DNA of 52,787 nucleotides from an uncultured Gammaproteobacteria bacterium (GTDB lineage: Bacteria > Patescibacteriota > Microgenomatia > UBA10105): positions 23,091 through 75,877 of the forward strand of contig CAYPMW010000004.1 in assembly GCA_964412165.1 (NCBI GenBank). Direction: 5' to 3'. Shown here piece by piece: positions 2,037-52,771 of this stretch. The translations under genes and the position numbers were made by a program. The first letter of the stretch is position 1; each line of letters starts with the position of its first letter. Under the pieces are notes generated by a model. The model was not told the DNA's origin. It saw nothing but the letters and a program-made list of their open reading frames with translations, and made no database searches.

Positions 2037-4919
2037 ATGAGACGAACATATCTGTTATTATTTTTTTTCCTAATCATCTTCGTACTTTCACTCCGCCCTA
2101 CATTTGCTCAAAAAAAATTTGGTAAAAACCAGATTGGGCCGAATATGTCTTCTGACATTCGATACGAACCGGTACGTGCGACTCTTAAAGCCAAAGGTGT
2201 AGCGTTTGCGACACTTATGGTTGATGTCGGAGCGTGCAACACGACTCCTGATTATTCGTTGTGTCTTGATGACACAATGAAAAACTGGCAAACCTGGGTG
2301 AATGAGACAGGCATTGGTGCTGCCATAATTCGTGTCTATAACGGGGGTTATGAGATTTCTTCGAGTAAAGCATTTACACTTGGCGATGCGTTTGCGCGAT
2401 ATTTTCCCGGAAGACGGGTAGTATTTGGCAATGAACCAAATAATATTGTACTTGAATGGAAGGGCGGGACACCAGCATCGTACGCAGAATCACTCAAACA
2501 GTTTGCAGACGGTGCCAAGGGACGGATAGAAGTGATTGCCGCGCCACTTGACCCATTTTTTGAAGATACGGTGAGTGGGTTTAAAGCTGAAGATTTCATC
2601 CGACAAGTATATGGTGGTGGTAATGCCCTAAAATTTATTAATGTCGATGGACTGGCGTTTAACGTCTATCATGAGGGAAGCGATATCGGCGACTGCCCGA
2701 TAGAAGTAACAGCACTTACGAGCGCTTTACGTAGAACGAAATGTTCCTGGCTTTGGCTGGTTGGTATATACGGTGGCAATGGCGTGAAGCAGAAAAAGTT
2801 CTATCTCACCGAATTTAGCCTGGCTCCTCATACAAGCGATGACGATCTAGGGTCGGTAATAAACTTTATTGACACGAATAAACAAGAGATGATTGACCGT
2901 GGTGCAGAACTCATCACACCGCTTATCCGAAACCCGTGCTTCGATCCGTCTGCTACTTCAGGATTTAAAAAATGGCCATGGCTTATGTTTTTAGACGGCA
3001 GTCCATCTCAAGCCGTCAATCCTGAAAATGGTGAAGCGGTGAGCGAGACGTGCGTAGAGGCAGACTTTGTCGAATGTCAAGAAGTTGAAGACTCCGAGCC
3101 ACAAAAAAGGGGAATATTTAACTTTCTCAAAAGTTTCTTTGGTGCGATTTATTCATCGATTCATGGACTATTTGCCCAAAAAACCGGAGAATGTACCAAT
3201 GCGTTTGACGTCATCGGTAGCGACGTTGAAGACGATCGTCGAACTGCCGCAGGTAAGCGCTTTTGCAATTATGATCCAAAAACTGTGGGCACCATCAGTT
3301 ATCCTTATAATGTGAGTGAGAACGTGACCATCTCCTTTAATCTGTTTAACGAAATATCGCGCTTATTTTCCTGGAATGTATCGACCAACGCCTGGCTACC
3401 GTTTTACAATACTTCAAAAAAATATTCACCTGGGCAGGTGCCATCAGAGAATACCGCAGTCGATTACTATGCCGGCTGCAGTGATACCGAATATTTGGAG
3501 GATTGGAATAAATACAAAAATGCTAAACCGGAAGACAAAGATAAAGAATTTTTGAAAAAAGCCCGTAAATGTGCAGGTGTGATAATAAAATCGTTGCCGT
3601 ATAAAACGAAAAATGCCAACAAAGAATACAAAAAAACCGATGATGCATTAAGAGATAAGACCCTTATGGCTATCGCCCACAATTACGTCTGTGATCATCC
3701 GAACTTTGGCGGCGTCTGCGGAGCTGTCGATCACTTCCGCGAATTTGATTATCGTCTTGGCTGGGTGACTCCGGTTGATCCGAATGCTGCCGATATAACT
3801 ACTACCGCTACTTTGTATAATTCTTCCGAACCGCCGACTAGCAAGAAACGCGAAATGTGGGTAAGTGAGCTCTTTTGTATCAACCCCAATTTCGTCACTC
3901 CGTTTGTCGGAAGAAATGAGATAAATACCGTATGTCAGGAGATCATGGGGCCAAACTATGCAAGTGGTGAGATCGCTGCCAATTCTATTATCGGTAAAGC
4001 TAATAACGGGAGAAATTTATTTAAAACTCCGGATGAAAGCCAGATATACAGTTGGTCAGTGGCCTGGGAAAAAGTACCCAATAAACCCCTTTATGATACC
4101 GAAGCTGCAGGAAGTCTGGATAGAATTTTTCCTGGTCAAGGTGATGACAATAAACATTCACCACCGCCTGACGCTAAGGATTATGATGCCGATGCCGGCT
4201 CATACATGATGCCGGGAGTCACGGGTGTAAATGAAATGGCTAAGATAGGTGCTAACCTCAAGCTTCCCAAAGACAACGGTAAAAACAGGGAAAAGTATGA
4301 ATTGCCCAAGATTGACTGTCCAGGTAATAGTGTCGGAGATGATAAAGTACTTGATGCAGTAGCTGGCATGGAGTACAACCGGTCTTTCCCGGCGTTTAAT
4401 ATTTTTAATCTTTTGGGGATATTTGGTATAGGAGACCAGAAAACTGATTCCCGGACAATGAGTCGGGATGGGACGATTGAACTGGCAATTTCCCAAAACC
4501 AGGCGGACAATGTCCTCTACGCCAGATCAATTGGTAATGCCCGACAACCTCTATCAACCGTAAAAAAGTTGAGAACGAAAGTAGGCGGGCCTGATGGTCC
4601 GACCATTGATGCGCTCGGTACACCGAGCGAATTCCGCTGTACCGGAGCTAATTGTCCAAACAAAGGCACCATTCCTTTGACCGGTGGTCCGGCAATCCTG
4701 GCCTATAATCCAGAGCCGTGTGGGTCGCTACTCCAAGAATCGCTCCGGCCGAGGAAGGCATGCAAAAAGTCGATCAGCGGCTGGGTACACGATGTCGCCA
4801 GTCAAGTTGAGGTAGATCGACTGAGTAAAAACGCCTGGGAAAGCTTGGTATCTCTCAACCCCCTCAAACGTACCAATGACAATTTAAGTACTCATGAAGT
4901 CGTATCTCCGGTCGACTGA
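2037..4919 (+). CDS. large secreted protein with N-terminal GH-A-like catalytic domain and Cys-rich C-terminal region
   Basis: Signal peptide MRRTYLLLFFFLIIFVLSLRPTFAQ; VFGNEPNN and FYLTEFS motifs; about 600 aa uncharacterised Cys-containing tail. Confidence 0.75.
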   Translation: MRRTYLLLFFFLIIFVLSLRPTFAQKKFGKNQIGPNMSSDIRYEPVRATLKAKGVAFATLMVDVGACNTTPDYSLCLDDTMKNWQTWVNETGIGAAIIRVYNGGYEISSSKAFTLGDAFARYFPGRRVVFGNEPNNIVLEWKGGTPASYAESLKQFADGAKGRIEVIAAPLDPFFEDTVSGFKAEDFIRQVYGGGNALKFINVDGLAFNVYHEGSDIGDCPIEVTALTSALRRTKCSWLWLVGIYGGNGVKQKKFYLTEFSLAPHTSDDDLGSVINFIDTNKQEMIDRGAELITPLIRNPCFDPSATSGFKKWPWLMFLDGSPSQAVNPENGEAVSETCVEADFVECQEVEDSEPQKRGIFNFLKSFFGAIYSSIHGLFAQKTGECTNAFDVIGSDVEDDRRTAAGKRFCNYDPKTVGTISYPYNVSENVTISFNLFNEISRLFSWNVSTNAWLPFYNTSKKYSPGQVPSENTAVDYYAGCSDTEYLEDWNKYKNAKPEDKDKEFLKKARKCAGVIIKSLPYKTKNANKEYKKTDDALRDKTLMAIAHNYVCDHPNFGGVCGAVDHFREFDYRLGWVTPVDPNAADITTTATLYNSSEPPTSKKREMWVSELFCINPNFVTPFVGRNEINTVCQEIMGPNYASGEIAANSIIGKANNGRNLFKTPDESQIYSWSVAWEKVPNKPLYDTEAAGSLDRIFPGQGDDNKHSPPPDAKDYDADAGSYMMPGVTGVNEMAKIGANLKLPKDNGKNREKYELPKIDCPGNSVGDDKVLDAVAGMEYNRSFPAFNIFNLLGIFGIGDQKTDSRTMSRDGTIELAISQNQADNVLYARSIGNARQPLSTVKKLRTKVGGPDGPTIDALGTPSEFRCTGANCPNKGTIPLTGGPAILAYNPEPCGSLLQESLRPRKACKKSISGWVHDVASQVEVDRLSKNAWESLVSLNPLKRTNDNLSTHEVVSPVD

Positions 4920-33110: not shown

Positions 33111-33148
33111 GTTATACCCGGAACAATTTCAATTGTGAAGGGTATACT
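33111..33148. repeat. 38-bp nested palindrome, copy 1
   Basis: GTTATACCCGGAACAATTTCAATTGTGAAGGGTATACT; 36/38 identical to 41025-41062. Confidence 0.85.
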
Positions 33149-33151
33149 ATG

Positions 33152-33423
33152 AAGACATCTACATTTGAAATAGCTTAAATACAATCAGCTTGGGGCAGGC
33201 AGATATTATTTACTCCATCCCAACAAGGGCAATCATCTTGAGGTAAATTCCTGACTTGTTTTCGTTCTGCCTCTGTAGGTGGAGGAGGGAAGCGAGGTTG
33301 TGGATATGAGTCTTTTTGAGGTTTTTTAAGATAAAAAACAATCGCAGTAATAACAAGCAAAGTCAGTGCAATTATAAGAATTTTTACCATATCTTCATCA
33401 TCGTATCAGATTAGGTATTTATA
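33152..33423. repeat. 272-bp direct repeat, copy 1
   Basis: Matches 35703-35974 except 2 substitutions upstream of the contained ORF. Confidence 0.95.
33175..33390 (-). CDS. small membrane-anchored Pro/Cys-rich protein, copy 1
   Basis: TM helix, PPPP, four C-terminal Cys; identical to 35726-35941. Confidence 0.75.
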   Translation of the reverse strand: MVKILIIALTLLVITAIVFYLKKPQKDSYPQPRFPPPPTEAERKQVRNLPQDDCPCWDGVNNICLPQADCI

Positions 33424-33486
33424 ATCCATGATGGACGATGTTCAGACCTATTTTATAACTTCAAAAGAGCCTGTTTTTATTCCTTG

Positions 33487-35626: not shown

Positions 35627-35702
35627 GTGTGGATATAATAGGACAGAATCTTCGCGTCTTTATTATAAACTCTTCGTCAAAAGATGTGTAAGTTTTACTA
35701 TC

Positions 35703-35974
35703 AAGACATCTACATTTGAAATAGCTTAAATACAATCAGCTTGGGGCAGGCAGATATTATTTACTCCATCCCAACAAGGGCAATCATCTTGAGGTAAATT
35801 CCTGACTTGTTTTCGTTCTGCCTCTGTAGGTGGAGGAGGGAAGCGAGGTTGTGGATATGAGTCTTTTTGAGGTTTTTTAAGATAAAAAACAATCGCAGTA
35901 ATAACAAGCAAAGTCAGTGCAATTATAAGAATTTTTACCATATCTTCATTATCGTATCAAATTAGGTATTTATA
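35703..35974. repeat. 272-bp direct repeat, copy 2
   Basis: See 33152-33423; offset 2551 bp. Confidence 0.95.
35726..35941 (-). CDS. small membrane-anchored Pro/Cys-rich protein, copy 2
   Basis: Identical to 33175-33390. Confidence 0.75.
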   Translation of the reverse strand: MVKILIIALTLLVITAIVFYLKKPQKDSYPQPRFPPPPTEAERKQVRNLPQDDCPCWDGVNNICLPQADCI

Positions 35975-36137
35975 TTCTATGGTAGCGTCTTATTTTTACT
36001 AGAGAAATACTGGCTTATTTTCTTAATGTACAAGAAAGATATTTTAATCAATTACTAAGTGATATTCTTTGAGTTTTGTAAATATGAAAATATTTGGTAG
36101 AATAGAGCCTAATTAAACTGCCCCAGAGGTAGTTTTT

Positions 36138-37002: not shown

Positions 37003-37215
37003 ATGAGTTTGGTTTGGGATTATTCCAAAACAGTATTGGAAAAGAGTGAAAAAGGGAAAATATTGCTTCTGGAACGCGCGATAAATTATGGTCCCAATCA
37101 GGGTCAAAAATTGAAACGTCAGAATATTATCAAATATTGGGATAGACTCAAGTTGTTCCCGAAAAAAAAGAGATTGTTGGAGCTTCTGATATGGGGAAAA
37201 CAGTCCTCAATTTAA
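37003..37215 (+). CDS. small putative antitoxin partner of the AbiEii-like toxin
   Basis: WDY...LLERAINYG...IKYW; overlaps the downstream nucleotidyltransferase. Confidence 0.7.
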   Translation: MSLVWDYSKTVLEKSEKGKILLLERAINYGPNQGQKLKRQNIIKYWDRLKLFPKKKRLLELLIWGKQSSI

Positions 37216-37847
37216 AACAAACCTCCATTCTGGATGCGTTCACCGAAGAACCATTTTTGACTGGTAATTTTTATTTTACCGGCGGAACCGCATTAAGCGA
37301 AGTATATCTTCAACACAGAGAAAGCATCGACTTGGATTTTTTCAGTAGGTTGCAGTTTGATCCGCAAAAATTGTTAAATATTATTGAATCCTGGTCGCGT
37401 AAATATAAATTTATCATCAAGCAGCAATTTGTTGATCCCACTTATATTTATATCTGCAAATTTGCCGATAATGAGGAATTGAAAATTGATTTCGCAACGT
37501 ATCCTTACAAACAACTCTCAGAGAGAGTGGTATACCATGAGCGTCTACAAGTCGATAGTTTATTAGATATTAGTGTAAATAAACTTATTACTTTGACACA
37601 GCGGGCTGAAGCAAAAGATTATGTAGATCTTTTCTATATTTTACAGCATTTTTCTTTTTGGGAGTTAAAAGAAGGAGTAAGAAGTAAGTTTAACGTCGAG
37701 CTAGAACCATTTACGGCAGCTGCTGATTTTGCGGCGGTAGAGACTATTGAATTTTTGCCTAAAATGTTGACAACTTTAACTATTCAGGAATTGAAATCGT
37801 TTTTCTTAACTCTTGCAAAAAAACTGGGTGGAAACTTTATTGAATAA
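37191..37847 (+). CDS. AbiEii/AbiGii-family nucleotidyltransferase toxin
   Basis: FYFTGGTAL...HRESIDLDFF; NKL...R.EAKDYVDL. Confidence 0.9.
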   Translation: MGKTVLNLKQTSILDAFTEEPFLTGNFYFTGGTALSEVYLQHRESIDLDFFSRLQFDPQKLLNIIESWSRKYKFIIKQQFVDPTYIYICKFADNEELKIDFATYPYKQLSERVVYHERLQVDSLLDISVNKLITLTQRAEAKDYVDLFYILQHFSFWELKEGVRSKFNVELEPFTAAADFAAVETIEFLPKMLTTLTIQELKSFFLTLAKKLGGNFIE

Positions 37848-38010: not shown

Positions 38011-38024
38011 TTCCAGAATTCTTG

Positions 38025-38095
38025 CAGGTCCGCCCCGATTCGAACGGGGAATAGAGGTTTTGGAGACCTCTGTGATACCGTTTCACCACGGACCT
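38025..38095 (-). tRNA. trnW: tRNA-Trp (CCA)
   Basis: Acceptor AGGTCCG/CGGACCT, anticodon arm GAGGT-CTCCAAA-ACCTC, T-arm CCCCG-TTCGAAT-CGGGG, G73; CCA end not encoded. Confidence 0.95.
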
Positions 38096-40957: not shown

Positions 40958-40991
40958 TATACCCTTCTTACTTGAGTTTGCAACTTTTTCG
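40958..40991 (-). promoter_or_regulatory. duplicated promoter, copy 1
   Basis: Minus strand TTGCAA-N16-TATATA; 31/34 identical to 52738-52771. Confidence 0.6.
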
Positions 40992-41024: not shown

Positions 41025-41062
41025 GTTATACTCGGAACAAATTCAATTGTGAAGGGTATACT
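41025..41062. repeat. 38-bp nested palindrome, copy 2
   Basis: GTTATACTCGGAACAAATTCAATTGTGAAGGGTATACT. Confidence 0.85.
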
Positions 41063-41594: not shown

Positions 41595-41618
41595 AAGCTT
41601 TGCAAGAAGCTTAGTAGC

Positions 41619-41984
41619 TTAACTACTATTTAATTTTATCCTTAAACCACTAAGCATTAAGGCAATTTCCTTCATTTCTTTCATATACATCAGTTTTTTG
41701 TCGTCAGTAATTAACTTTAATGAATGTGCAAGTTCTATTATCGGTATACATTCAAAAACAGAACCGCGAGCAATAATCAGCAAATGACAGAAATCTTTTT
41801 TGGTTTCACTGCTACCTTCAGCGATATTAAGAACTATAGATACTATCGCTTGACGTAATTGATCTGTTATTCCAAAGAGGTGTTCTTTTGGCCAAGTTTG
41901 TGTTAACTGATATATTTGCTTTGAAAGTGCTAATGAACGCTGATATACAGTAAGCGACTCAAAGTTAAATTGAGCAATATTCAT
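41619..41984 (-). CDS. four helix bundle protein (23S rRNA IVS-protein family)
   Basis: FESLTVYQRS...WPKEHLFGITDQLRQA..SIVLNIAEG...ARGS..E. Confidence 0.92.
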   Translation of the reverse strand: MNIAQFNFESLTVYQRSLALSKQIYQLTQTWPKEHLFGITDQLRQAIVSIVLNIAEGSSETKKDFCHLLIIARGSVFECIPIIELAHSLKLITDDKKLMYMKEMKEIALMLSGLRIKLNSS

Positions 41985-42065
41985 GCTCTTTGAAACTTCA
42001 ATGTGGCTTTAATACTAGTATACAAAATACTATGCTACTAAACTTCTAAGCCGCTAGGCTACTAC

Positions 42066-42118
42066 CTAGTCGAGTTTGTTAGTTTCCTTATGTAATGTAA
42101 CCTTCCGGCAGTGCTTGC
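42066..42118 (-). pseudogene. displaced second 3' end of rpmG
   Basis: Encodes KHCRKVTLHKETNKLD*; 13-bp identity CGGCAGTGCTTGC with 42259-42271. Confidence 0.85.
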
Positions 42119-42184
42119 CCGCCTGATCTTACTTCTCTCCTTAGCTACTATCCGTAGCACGGCGCAAAGATCGATCTTAGGCGG
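42119..42184. repeat. REP-like nested hairpin
   Basis: CCGCCT...AGGCGG with inner GATCTT/AAGATC and a CTCCTTAGCTA...CACGGCG unit resembling 46455-46478. Confidence 0.6.
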
Positions 42185-42218
42185 ACTGCGCACTACGGTT
42201 AGTTAAGTCCTTATTAAA

Positions 42219-42392
42219 TCAATCCAGTTTGTCCGTCTCTTTATGCTTAGTCACTTTTCGGCAGTGCTTGCACCATTTGTTGAACTCGAGTTTGTCTTTG
42301 GTATTGAGTTTATTTTTAGTTGTTAAATAATTATTGGTTTTACACACGTCACATTGTAGTGCCAGTGTCACCCGTTGTCCCTTTTTAGCCAT
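42219..42392 (-). CDS. rpmG: 50S ribosomal protein L33 (Zn-ribbon, C+ type)
   Basis: Hand translation MAKKGQRVTLALQCDVCKTNNYLTTKNKLNTKDKLEFNKWCKHCRKVTKHKETDKLD (57 aa); AAGGA SD; absent from the ORF track. Confidence 0.97.
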   Translation of the reverse strand: MAKKGQRVTLALQCDVCKTNNYLTTKNKLNTKDKLEFNKWCKHCRKVTKHKETDKLD

Positions 42393-42416
42393 AGGCATCC
42401 TTTCTTTAAACGCTTA

Positions 42417-42445
42417 ATTATACCGTAAGCATGATGGTGTGACAA
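42417..42445 (-). promoter_or_regulatory. rpmG promoter
   Basis: TTGTCA-N17-TATAAT on the minus strand. Confidence 0.8.
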
Positions 42446-42545
42446 CATTGTGGTTACCAGGCGATTGAGTTGGTAACCGATATTTACTTCGATTCTCTGG
42501 CGGAGGTAGACTAATAAGACCTGCTTTCGCCTCCACCCTAAGTCT

Positions 42546-43295
42546 TTACAAATGAATTGTGGGGTTATTGCGGGATTCAATTAAAGCCAGACTAATCAGC
42601 CGTTCTATAGTAGGTATGTATTCAGCCTCGGTTAGCCTATCATGTGTTATACCTTCGTGGTGTTCTCTGATGCGTAAAGCATCATAAAATCCGGACTTAA
42701 AATTTTGTGCCGATTCACTATTTGCGATTTGAAGATAGGTACTTCTAAACTGGTCAATGACTCTCGGATTATGCAGCAATTCATCAGAGTCATAAAGCAC
42801 TGTACTCATCGCTTCACCCATCGCTGCGCCAATAATGTAATGTAAATTTACGGTTGCTCCGCCAACTATGCGAGTTGCTCCCAGACGGGCCAGTCTCTCT
42901 TTGGTAAGTTGTGAAGCTACGTAGTAAGTTAACACAACCGCCACTTCGTAAGGAGCAATTCTTGGGTTGAGAGTATAACAAAAGTCAATTAGCAGACGAC
43001 CCATGATTTCCAACGGTGAATGCGGGAAATTTTTTATAGCGTGTTGTAGGAAAAGGTCTGTCAAACCAACTGTGAATAATTCTCTCAGAAACGAGGGAAA
43101 CGTATCTTCTGGGTGATGATCTTCGTAAATCTCGATTAAACTTTTGGCATCTAATGCTAATCCTCCTGGTCTGTCGGGGTTTCCGTGAAGTGCAGTAAGT
43201 TGGGATAACGCTTCAGGAAGTGGAGAACGAATTTCCCTATAGGCAAGTCCTGAAACAAGACCAGCTTGCATATGGAGCTCATTTTCAATATACAT
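42546..43295 (-). CDS. hypothetical helical protein (paralog of 43345-44013)
   Basis: 249 aa; HYIIGAAMGEAM...YLQIANSESAQNFKSGFYDALRI. Confidence 0.75.
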   Translation of the reverse strand: MYIENELHMQAGLVSGLAYREIRSPLPEALSQLTALHGNPDRPGGLALDAKSLIEIYEDHHPEDTFPSFLRELFTVGLTDLFLQHAIKNFPHSPLEIMGRLLIDFCYTLNPRIAPYEVAVVLTYYVASQLTKERLARLGATRIVGGATVNLHYIIGAAMGEAMSTVLYDSDELLHNPRVIDQFRSTYLQIANSESAQNFKSGFYDALRIREHHEGITHDRLTEAEYIPTIERLISLALIESRNNPTIHL

Positions 43296-43344: not shown

Positions 43345-44013
43345 TCACTGAACGTTAATTACTGAATCGGCATACTGAGACAAAGGTAACTCAGAAGGCC
43401 AAATTTCATTTCTAATATCATCCAAACGGTGTGCTTCCAAAATTCCCAAAAAGAATGAGTCTTGAGCATAGGACGTAGCGAGGAGTTGCAGATAATTATC
43501 AACAAATGCATGTAATTTATAAACCCACCAATGAGATATATCTCCTGCTTTCGCGTCAATCAGACACTGTCCGATACTTCGACCAATCATAAAATGTCGA
43601 TCAGACGAGATCCTTTCTTCATAAGTGTAAACAAATGGAGTAGATTGGGATGCCGCAGAGGACATCACATACGCCAGAAACATGAGATCTAAACTTAACG
43701 GTACATTTTTACCGAAAATGTCTTTGAAACTCCACATCCGACCAACAAATCTGGTCCAGTCGTGAGGATCGCGAGACATTAAATATTTCATACCTACCAC
43801 TGCCAGAAAACGCTCACCTGCAGTATGTATCGAAGCAGATGAGGGAATAGCATAGAGGCTTTCAATTTCTTCATCAGTCATGGGTTCACCTCTCGCACGT
43901 ATATAATCTGCATTAACCTGTAGAATTTGGAGAGCAACGGGATAAGAATGAGCGAGATCACGAAAACGACAACGTGATAGATCTATACATTGCGATAAAT
44001 TTTCGTGAGACAT
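43345..44013 (-). CDS. hypothetical helical protein (paralog of 42546-43295)
   Basis: 222 aa; HFMIGRSIGQCL...YLQLLATSYAQDSFFLGILEAHRL. Confidence 0.75.
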   Translation of the reverse strand: MSHENLSQCIDLSRCRFRDLAHSYPVALQILQVNADYIRARGEPMTDEEIESLYAIPSSASIHTAGERFLAVVGMKYLMSRDPHDWTRFVGRMWSFKDIFGKNVPLSLDLMFLAYVMSSAASQSTPFVYTYEERISSDRHFMIGRSIGQCLIDAKAGDISHWWVYKLHAFVDNYLQLLATSYAQDSFFLGILEAHRLDDIRNEIWPSELPLSQYADSVINVQ

Positions 44014-52274: not shown

Positions 52275-52724
52275 TCAACCAAGCCATGTAGGTCGACCAC
52301 CAATGTATTCGGTAAACATGGGGCGAGTGCTTAAAAAATCTGATAACCAGTTATCGGGATTTCGTTGACGGATTAGATACTCGTACGCTTTCCCGAAATC
52401 ACTCGCGAGACGCTGAACGACTAACGATGAGGGAACGCCGTATCTGGGCAGCAGAGCCAAAGTAGATACAGTTAGCTCTTGTTGCGCCTTTACCCCTTGC
52501 GCTCCTAGATCCTGTAGATGACCAGATGCATATTCTGGATATCCCATTTCTCCCATGTGCGCACTTAATTGCCGATACTGTCGGTATAACTGATCCATCT
52601 CGGATATTGAAACGATGGCGAGATCAAGTTGCCATGCATCTACAGGTCGCATCTCGGCGGGTAAAGACTCTTGGATGGCTATTTGTAAGATAATTCTGTT
52701 ACTTCCAAATTCTGGATATGCCAT
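52275..52724 (-). CDS. hypothetical protein (orphan)
   Basis: Start MAYPEF 11 nt after TATACT. Confidence 0.65.
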   Translation of the reverse strand: MAYPEFGSNRIILQIAIQESLPAEMRPVDAWQLDLAIVSISEMDQLYRQYRQLSAHMGEMGYPEYASGHLQDLGAQGVKAQQELTVSTLALLPRYGVPSSLVVQRLASDFGKAYEYLIRQRNPDNWLSDFLSTRPMFTEYIGGRPTWLG

Positions 52725-52737
52725 AATAGGTAAATAG

Positions 52738-52771
52738 TATACCCTTCTTACTGTAATTTGCAACTTTTTCG
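52738..52771 (-). promoter_or_regulatory. duplicated promoter, copy 2
   Basis: Minus strand TTGCAA-N16-TATACT. Confidence 0.65.

Follow-up and report, generated by a model that had tools for sequence, protein, structure and literature searches.

A protein-less cassette of a replacement rpmG 3' end and a structured RNA, probably spreading by recombination in a tRNA gene cluster of Microgenomates bacteria

The DNA analysed here, called the window throughout, is a stretch of 52,787 nucleotides (nt) from an uncultured bacterium of the Microgenomatia (Patescibacteriota, UBA10105 in GTDB), taken from contig CAYPMW010000004.1 of GenBank assembly GCA_964412165.1 (positions 23,091 to 75,877 of the forward strand). 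In the analysis, the window was assigned to a Patescibacteria (Microgenomates) genome from groundwater, assembly GCA_016204895.1. In this window, rpmG, the gene for ribosomal protein L33, is followed by a structured RNA and, behind that RNA, by a second version of its own 3' end. We refer to the end of the working gene as tail A and to the second, downstream end as tail B. Comparison of carriers with relatives that lack the insert shows, as far as such sequence comparisons reach, that tail B is the original rpmG end of the host and that tail A arrived together with the RNA. On balance it seems probable that the replacement tail and the RNA of about 75 nt together constitute a cassette without any protein of its own, which spreads by recombination within a conserved cluster of tRNA genes and rpmG.

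The working rpmG starts with an ATG at 42392 and stops with a TGA at 42221-42219 on the minus strand (Table 1); its product is 54-79% identical to L33 homologues and ends in KHCRKVTKHKETDKLD, or ...KWCKHCRKVTKHKETDKLD in a longer reading. Tail B, lying 153 nt 3' of tail A, reads KHCRKVTLHKETNKLD and closes with a TAG stop codon. Both tails open with the same 13-mer, GCAAGCACTGCCG (42106-42118 and 42259-42271), which occurs exactly twice in the whole window, and 38 of their 53 nt match, compared to 27 of 53 for the next-best ungapped match to tail A on both strands of the window. Twelve codons differ between the tails, nine of them synonymously and one from stop to stop, which leaves two residue changes (K/L and D/N). 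A first-pass annotation, made from the letters alone, had pointed out the second tail with its shared 13-mer 153 nt downstream and had described the differences as mostly synonymous; both descriptions are confirmed by these counts. Tail B lacks a start codon, as there is no ATG, GTG or TTG between an in-frame TAA four codons upstream and its first Lys codon (AAG). The 153-nt insert holds no open reading frame (ORF), no recombinase domain was found in the neighbouring proteins of the window by Pfam, NCBIfam and PHROGs searches, and no integrase, transposase or reverse transcriptase is present in or beside the insert among the neighbouring genes, nor beside the stand-alone copies of the RNA described below. 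The spacer between the tails folds into one long hairpin (-47.7 kcal/mol, z = -4.1, none of 200 shuffles being as stable), of which the 3' arm enters the 13-mer of tail B, and the minimum free energy (MFE) fold allows CCGUAGUGC (42190-42198, linker) to base-pair with GCACUGCCGG, located where tail B starts. No terminator-like site was found on the minus strand between 42066 and 42219, the hairpin running into tail B and not into U residues.

The window is part of a metagenome-assembled genome, and samples of this sort contain related strains side by side, so in principle the two tails might be the rpmG alleles of two strains merged during assembly, an outcome that the first-pass annotation had itself named as refuting its proposal. 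Over the kilobase 41600-42600, contigs from four separate groundwater metagenome runs show zero differences, no deletion joint and no alternative joint, and the same architecture is present in 11 other distinct sequences from different studies. At the level of these assembled contigs, no sign was found of the recombination at the 13-mers by which, according to the first-pass annotation, the tails would be swapped back. Because four independent assemblies are identical, the arrangement of the tails is real and not a mis-assembly, and we give practically no credence to an artefact.

The recurrence of this layout was assessed in 170 rpmG loci of related Microgenomates (cited by L number), originating from 80 species-representative genomes, 80 metagenomes and 10 exact-protein look-ups. 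The double-tail layout (tail A, stop, RNA, tail B, stop) is present in 19 of them, representing 12 distinct sequences with the window contig included, and the second tail of all 19 terminates at a separate stop codon, 106-158 nt beyond that of the working gene. This patchy occurrence excludes a fixed and ancestral arrangement, the other outcome that was named beforehand as refuting. From stop to stop, the offsets in the 12 distinct sequences amount to 153 (window), 152, 158, 140, 107, 107, 107, 108, 106, 109, 117 and 130 nt. The first-pass annotation was right that the 153-bp offset of the window is a multiple of three, but since the other double-tail loci show offsets of many lengths, this register is incidental rather than meaningful. 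The junctions are of two types: in Gottesmanbacteria-type loci (window, L026, L105 and the L110 group) tail B begins from Cys41/Lys42 with the junction GGGC/AAG, the slash marking the joint, and in Levybacteria-type loci (L027, L028, L031, L141, L144, L149, L054 and L048) it begins from about Thr48 with the junction ..GGAC/N-GAACAY. The stretch over which the two tails are exactly identical measures 38 nt in L105, 30 nt (30/30) in L144, 13 nt in the window and 5 nt in L027, and is practically absent from L054. At most other double-tail loci, tail B is followed by tRNA-Trp and not by the gene for an Avd-like four-helix-bundle protein that follows it in the window.

The clearest comparison of filled and empty sites comes from a tight clade with rpmG genes that are 93-95% identical, in which L027 and L028 are filled and L131, L132, L155 and L109 are empty, and a clean indel of 107 nt is what separates the two states. 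In the empty genomes, the single tail and its downstream flank correspond to tail B and its flank, with 28-30 of 30 nt of this tail matching tail B versus 21-25 of 30 matching tail A; the tail B of L028 is identical to the L132 tail (30/30), against 23/30 for its tail A. Moreover, tail A of this clade uses the other serine codon family (TCA vs AGC). The nearest element-less tail is closer to tail B than to tail A for 11 of the 12 distinct sequences, the sole exception being the window (21 matches for A, 20 for B), which lacks a close empty relative. Five of the eight distinct Levybacteria-type carrier proteins have His-Arg-Glu (HRE; CGY) in tail A; His-Lys-Glu is found in the tail B of those same carriers and in every element-less L33 ending in KLK, and by the 5' part of rpmG each HRE carrier has its nearest neighbour among element-less genomes instead of among the other carriers. 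TTA-AAR-TAR closes all seven A tails of the Levybacteria type that were aligned, whereas B tails and empty-site tails vary there. These filled/empty and tail comparisons indicate that tail A travels with the RNA and that tail B is the displaced host ending. They thereby support the earlier proposal that a small foreign element had integrated in rpmG, giving it a new C-terminus in place of the old end, the comparison of rpmG flanks across relatives having found tail B host-like and tail A incoming.

For the lineage of the window itself, L003 provides a syntenic reference. In that locus, the rpmG stop lies 87 nt before orthologues of the Avd-like gene and of the 168-aa gene (50% and 44% identical, respectively), and in the window tail B ends 81 nt before the start of the Avd-like gene, which is a marker of the ancestral downstream flank and lies outside the cassette. 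L003 also has Leu at the K/L position, as in tail B. By analogy with L027 and L028, carriers that do have close empty relatives, tail A of the window would, its first 13 nt excepted, have come in together with the cassette.

All 12 distinct double-tail sequences have in common a homologous core, about 75 nt long. RNAalifold folds it into five helices with compensatory double changes at 11 of the 18 base pairs, and in an explicit pair count 96.3% of the alignment cells are paired. The 11 covarying pairs stand against 5.6 +/- 1.2 in shuffles (0 of 500 column shuffles reach 11) and fall to <=3 when the partners are slid by 1-3 columns. G-U pairs identify the rpmG-sense strand as the RNA strand. 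The most conserved nucleotides (GAGCCGUG, the apical CGAAUAG, AAGGCGAA and AAGAU) are unpaired or flank helices, which argues for a functional RNA and not for a generic palindrome. Judged from this alignment, the core is a genuine structured RNA family, which also occurs on its own. The hairpin had been called REP-like (after repetitive extragenic palindromic sequences) in the first-pass annotation, a label that does not hold for a single-copy element of the window with conserved structure and covariation.

Searches with covariance models gave 26 matches in about 1 Mb of rpmG-centred loci, all within the tRNA-rpmG cluster; model R2, built from 19 sequences, yielded no additional copies in the remaining 144 loci and, with filters off, no second copy in the 52.8-kb window. 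Seven copies stand alone in the tRNA-Thr/Tyr/Thr - rpmG - tRNA-Trp cluster, without fusion to an rpmG tail and on either strand, being located between tRNA-Thr and rpmG (in both orientations), after tRNA-Trp or upstream of tRNA genes, and five of these seven have an extra 5' hairpin. The apical variant of the window core (GCUAC...GUAGC-UAAGG) is otherwise found in stand-alone copies, so the fused and free forms belong to one family; the stem of the stand-alone form likewise runs into RCAAR. The stand-alone RNA is polymorphic as well: it is present in L050 and missing from the close relative L021, and the two loci, identical in the preceding tRNA-Thr, are separated by a clean indel of about 117 nt. 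The flanks of the stand-alone copies contain no significant repeat in a shuffle test, by which a repeated Shine-Dalgarno region around the L030 and L050 copies was also rejected as a target duplication.

Neither the gathering score nor a cut-off of E <= 10 under permissive filters gave a match in Rfam 15 for four copies (window, L030, L047 and L149), and no group I or II intron model matched in the Rfam searches. Known motifs, namely the K-turn, sarcin-ricin motif, T-loop, signal recognition particle (SRP) RNA, group II domain V and attC, were compared by eye and by Rfam searches, and none of them fits. A Twister-like cleavage loop was discarded since the 19-sequence alignment shows no conservation of the UAA that separates P1 from P2, and a phage origin of the core was discarded after an exact-pattern scan of viral contigs gave 0 matches. 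Contig depth over the conserved core is several-fold to more than 10-fold above that of the flanking rpmG (L145 1556-1603 in runs X6-X10; window 42115-42170 in runs X1-X4), and this excess of depth over the core suggests that the RNA is widespread in groundwater community members; loose contig ends in groundwater runs place the core RNA in other, non-rpmG contexts. In L054, the apical loop of the core is replaced by a tiny GC hairpin, CCCGCUGAGCGGG (L054/L165/L167 4215-4235); this 13-mer also occurs in the T-loop of a tRNA remnant of L061 (2502-2514) and once in L070 (2738-2750), and the L048 core (4226-4250) has a different, extra GC hairpin of 22 nt. The mini GC hairpins of L054, L061, L070 and L048 may be mobile mini-palindromes.

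Several loci bear signs of recent exchange around the cassette. Across a shared 533 nt, the only differences between L031 and L141 are four changes within codons 42-45 and a further 13 within the RNA core. L110, L125 and L135 are otherwise identical over >6 kb and differ in nested divergent tracts (rpmG -23 to 106) that all end just 5' of the cassette; these differences look like recombination tracts of unequal length anchored at the insert. Carriers and element-less relatives coexist in groundwater samples (the L145 runs; not the same strain). Taken together, these comparisons of contigs show a recombinationally active neighbourhood, in which the cassette is, by the same comparisons, gained or lost between close relatives.

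The spreading cassette that we favour could have originated when donor DNA with the RNA beside rpmG recombined into a recipient, the left join being made via long rpmG homology and the right join via a few shared bases, the end of the outer stem (GGGC-AAG) meeting rpmG codons 41-42 (TGC-AAG). The resulting block of tail A, RNA and the start of tail B would then move between Microgenomates lineages by recombination, probably after DNA uptake, the highly conserved rpmG providing the arm on the left and either tail B or the more distant tRNA-Trp gene the one on the right. We propose that the length of A/B identity varies between loci because the left crossover point inside the tail varies, and that tail B looks like coding sequence because it would be repeatedly re-sampled from host tails that were working until insertion. 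The core RNA is predicted to be transcribed together with rpmG, and we would guess that, as a structure at the 3' end of the short rpmG message, it serves processing or stabilisation within a transcript rich in tRNAs.

A number of points weigh against this proposal. The donor-type layout it calls for (rpmG, stop, RNA, no tail B) was not found among the 170 loci, and right-hand crossovers are needed very near the start of tail B, which is unusually short for RecA-type exchange. Gain and loss are read from contig comparison, no insertion or excision event having been caught directly, and the locus sample spans about 4 kb either side of rpmG, which limits what can be said on copy number per genome and on insertion sites. 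In the lineage of the window, the nearest relative is 74-79% identical, so that the assignment of A as incoming and B as original there rests on synteny and analogy. Furthermore, nine of ten third positions of tail B vary versus three of 20 first and second positions (p = 1.3e-4), a codon-type pattern as strong as that of tail A that could mean selection where tail B now sits, and the stop codon of tail B is kept in 12 of 12 distinct sequences.

These coding-type substitutions and the retained stop are what one would expect if tail B were functional in place, be it as the second ending of L33, used once tail A and the RNA have been taken out of the transcript or the DNA, as a micro-peptide or as a part of the RNA. 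In L110, AAGGAGG followed after 5 nt by AUG opens a perfect mini-ORF of 15 codons, in 6 of 12 sequences an ATG or GTG is found in frame a short way upstream, and pairing between the linker and the start of tail B is possible in both the window and L110 (in L110, UGCACAU with AUGUGCA). This 'anti-tail' pairing is not conserved in L026, L105 and the Levybacteria type and was rejected as a general switch, just as a mini-ORF was rejected on its non-conserved start codon and the upstream in-frame stop of L048. The offsets between the tails are not multiples of three across homologues, no intron or ribozyme family matches, and an isoform switch would have no obvious purpose as the two proteins would differ by 0-2 conservative residues; we regard a function of tail B in place as improbable. 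A single scar of illegitimate recombination in an ancestor of the Microgenomates, inherited vertically and removed by repeated precise deletions without ongoing transfer, would account for the one junction per type, as expected from few origins, and has a parallel in the other replacement-plus-remnant scars at tRNA genes of the same cluster. A silent tail B should then have decayed, yet it is 93-100% identical to the nearest empty tails (rpmG 5' parts: 93-94%) and varies almost only at third positions; carriers that are polyphyletic by their rpmG 5' sequence nevertheless share the HRE tail A, and the strain-level mosaics at the cassette point to recent exchange, which makes such an ancient scar unlikely.

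Active homing would be another way to explain the polyphyletic distribution: the RNA would act as guide scaffold or ribozyme and tail B as target match, an enzyme encoded elsewhere would cut empty alleles, repair would copy the cassette in, and the recoded tail A would let the carrier escape cutting. It fits with this that a structured scaffold is directly followed by sequence identical to the naive target, that nested tracts resembling co-conversion abut the cassette, and that tail A differs from tail B mainly silently (49 synonymous versus 12 non-synonymous codon differences within genomes). Carriers would, however, target themselves, as A equals B over 30/30 nt in L144, 38 nt in L105 and 13 nt in the window, none of the copies has a nuclease or recombinase gene nearby, and no known guide-RNA or ribozyme family matches, so that we hold homing for highly improbable. 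In streptococci, the rpmG 3' end is a documented attachment site for ICEs (integrative and conjugative elements) with a tyrosine integrase (PMC4701971), and the topology of new end, insert and old end is the same as in our loci. A decayed ICE, integrative mobilizable element (IME) or prophage, with the rpmG 3' end as attachment site and its interior lost, would have had to leave the same covarying 75-nt RNA in 12 lineages, which random decay would not do; the difference between filled and empty sites is exactly the small cassette, there is no integrase, the RNA also exists alone, and no constant identity block between the repeats is apparent (13, 30, 38, 5 or about 0 nt). We therefore see very little room for a relic of this kind.

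The cassette that we propose shares features with several known systems without fitting any of them. Like ICEs, IMEs and prophages, it sits in the last codons of its target, supplies a substitute 3' end, leaves the old end as a direct repeat and is carried patchily among relatives. Those elements measure kilobases and encode an integrase, whereas the cassette spans 106-158 nt, has no ORF, an RNA as payload and apparently no constant crossover core, and appears to depend on the general recombination of the host for its spread; without recombinase or cargo, and apparently without a constant core site, it is no member of an integrative-element family. Homology-facilitated illegitimate recombination after natural transformation produces mosaic alleles, normally as unique events with random junctions. 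The cassette agrees with it in the long homologous anchor (rpmG), the short microhomology joint (GCAAG or GAACA), the foreign tracts of variable length and the replacement-plus-remnant scars at tRNA genes of the cluster, and differs in that one junction type is shared by many lineages and that the insert holds a conserved, functional-looking RNA. REP sequences and bacterial interspersed mosaic elements (BIMEs), miniature inverted-repeat transposable elements (MITEs) and Rickettsia palindromic elements are short, noncoding, hairpin-forming, strain-variable sequences in or next to genes. The cassette is equally short, noncoding, hairpin-forming and present or absent between strains, but it is single copy in 52.8 kb, locus-restricted in the sampled DNA, has conserved loop nucleotides and compensatory stem changes, and lacks a target duplication of fixed length, its flanking repeats being variable gene tails of 30-52 nt. 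Homing elements comprise group I introns, homing-endonuclease genes and the retention of IS200/IS605 elements by TnpB and omega RNA; the fixed position in a conserved gene, the variable co-conversion of flanks and the mostly silent target differences are common to them and the cassette, which in contrast has no nuclease, an ORF that ends before the RNA (hence no intron) and A equal to B in some carriers. Finally, the pair of repeats at a gene 3' end with an Avd-like gene just downstream recalls a diversity-generating retroelement (DGR), which was rejected as the mismatches involve all four bases instead of being adenine-specific and no reverse transcriptase is present in the 16.7-kb contig stretch around rpmG (L001).

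Table 1. Features at the rpmG locus of the window, with positions counted from the first letter of the window.
Feature	Position	Strand	Description	Basis
rpmG	42219-42392	minus	L33, 57 amino acids (aa) + stop, intact	Pfam PF00471 E = 4e-16; gene also called on NCBI contig
Tail A	42219-42271	minus	codons 41-57 + stop of working rpmG	first 13 nt same as tail B
Linker	42193-42218	minus	stop codon to RNA core	MFE fold
Structured RNA core	42119-42192	minus	about 75 nt, helices P1-P5, apical GGAUA loop (GAAUA in most copies)	covariance model R1, 66.4 bits, E = 2e-15
Tail B	42066-42118	minus	taken as displaced original rpmG 3' end, codons 41-57 + TAG	synteny with L003
Avd-like gene	41619-41984	minus	23S rRNA intervening sequence (23S-rRNA-IVS) / Avd-like four-helix-bundle gene	PF05635 1e-28; PHROG 'Avd protein of DGR' 6.5e-9
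Promoter-like site	42417-42445	minus	upstream of rpmG; TTGTCA / 17-nt spacer / TATAAT	consensus scan, 11/12 hexamer matches; pattern match only

Apart from the rpmG cassette, tRNA genes of the related loci are interrupted in a comparable manner. A tRNA-Trp is split in its anticodon loop, between C34 and C35 (GUCUC/.../CAAAAC), by an insert of 107-108 nt that is bounded by the stem CCCGCCUGCA...UGCGGGCAGG and holds a complete second tRNA-Trp (L110 4752-4960; L021 ~1425-1580; L050 ~660-810; L031 395-620). The ends of this insert are nearly identical in four loci of distinct sequence, both Levybacteria-like and Gottesmanbacteria-like, and the outer, split tRNA-Trp looks dead, the inner one being the gene called by ARAGORN. 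In L156 (3750-3995), a 26-nt 5' tRNA remnant is followed by GCCCGCC-UAA-AUUUGC, a complete tRNA-Thr and ..AAAUUUUGGCGGGC, forming a module of 106 nt bounded by GCCCGCC...GGCGGGC; a copy of the core RNA comes after this module, its 3' end enters the apparent T-arm/acceptor of the broken outer tRNA, and rpmG follows 35 nt on. L061 (2380-2560) contains a foreign-type tRNA-Trp and then the 3' part of the native one, and L027 (430-620) the 5' half of a foreign-type tRNA-Trp and then a native-type gene. L027 and L028 have the foreign tRNA-Trp allele, although their tail B and the 60-nt spacer preceding it are host-like.

The surroundings of rpmG show a number of further features. An Avd-like/23S-rRNA-IVS gene directly follows rpmG in three lineages, namely in the window (Table 1), in L003 (5262-5612) and in L156 (from ~4230); these genes have GCAGT/GTAGT-rich flanks and no reverse transcriptase nearby, and the gap between rpmG and tRNA-Trp seems to collect small inserted genes. 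Two orphan genes of 249 and 222 aa (42546-43295 and 43345-44013, minus strand) lie between rpmG and a divergent PGA_cap gene of the window; they have no Pfam or PHROG match and one NCBIfam match far below threshold, and are absent from this position in the syntenic L003. A direct repeat of 297 nt, 97% identical, occupies two intergenic positions of the window 2.5 kb apart (33134-33430 and 35685-35981). An intergenic motif of about 38 nt, GTTATACCCGGAACAATTTCAATTGTGAAGGGTATACT, occurs at 33111-33148, 41025-41062 and, inverted, 52723-52760, one copy lying between the 168-aa and 423-aa genes downstream of the cassette, and a 34-nt repeat (40958-40991 and 52738-52771) adjoins it. The only tRNA gene of the window, tRNA-Trp (38024-38095, minus strand), adjoins an AbiEii-type nucleotidyltransferase toxin gene (37191-37847, plus strand) and is in this lineage about 4 kb away from rpmG, not adjacent. 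L002 (1-514), with an L33 ORF that diverges after codon 39 into GC-richer sequence without a match in the 170 loci, was considered and rejected as a further insertion at the hotspot; this contig of 514 nt with zero coverage is probably chimeric, though its break falls at the cassette hotspot.

The rpmG cassette might belong to an undescribed class of protein-free 'disrupt-and-replace' mini-elements in bacteria of the candidate phyla radiation, an extension that we put forward tentatively and hold to be rather doubtful. Such a class would consist of modules of about 100-160 nt with a GC-rich stem (CCCGCC...GGCGGG) that target essential, highly conserved genes, and the modules would be hard to lose because they bring a working substitute for what they break. 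The tRNA-Trp inserts of 107 nt, bounded by a similar stem, and the tRNA-Thr module of 106 nt in L156 would be further candidates. If these were indeed to share a mechanism with the rpmG cassette, whether RNA-mediated or dependent on an enzyme encoded elsewhere, this would represent a new kind of mobile element and offer a model, open to testing, for the persistence of selfish RNA modules in streamlined genomes.

For the Microgenomates, which have tiny genomes and are thought to depend heavily on DNA uptake, the cassette means that the spare-end trick of integrative islands also exists at a scale of about 100 nt and without an enzyme of its own. It further adds a new conserved structured RNA family that is absent from Rfam, is described by a covariance model and 19 distinct examples, and is common in groundwater. 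Moreover, the tRNA-Thr/Tyr/Thr - rpmG - tRNA-Trp cluster is a recombination hotspot, by which phylogenies built on marker genes and the tracking of strains can be misled.

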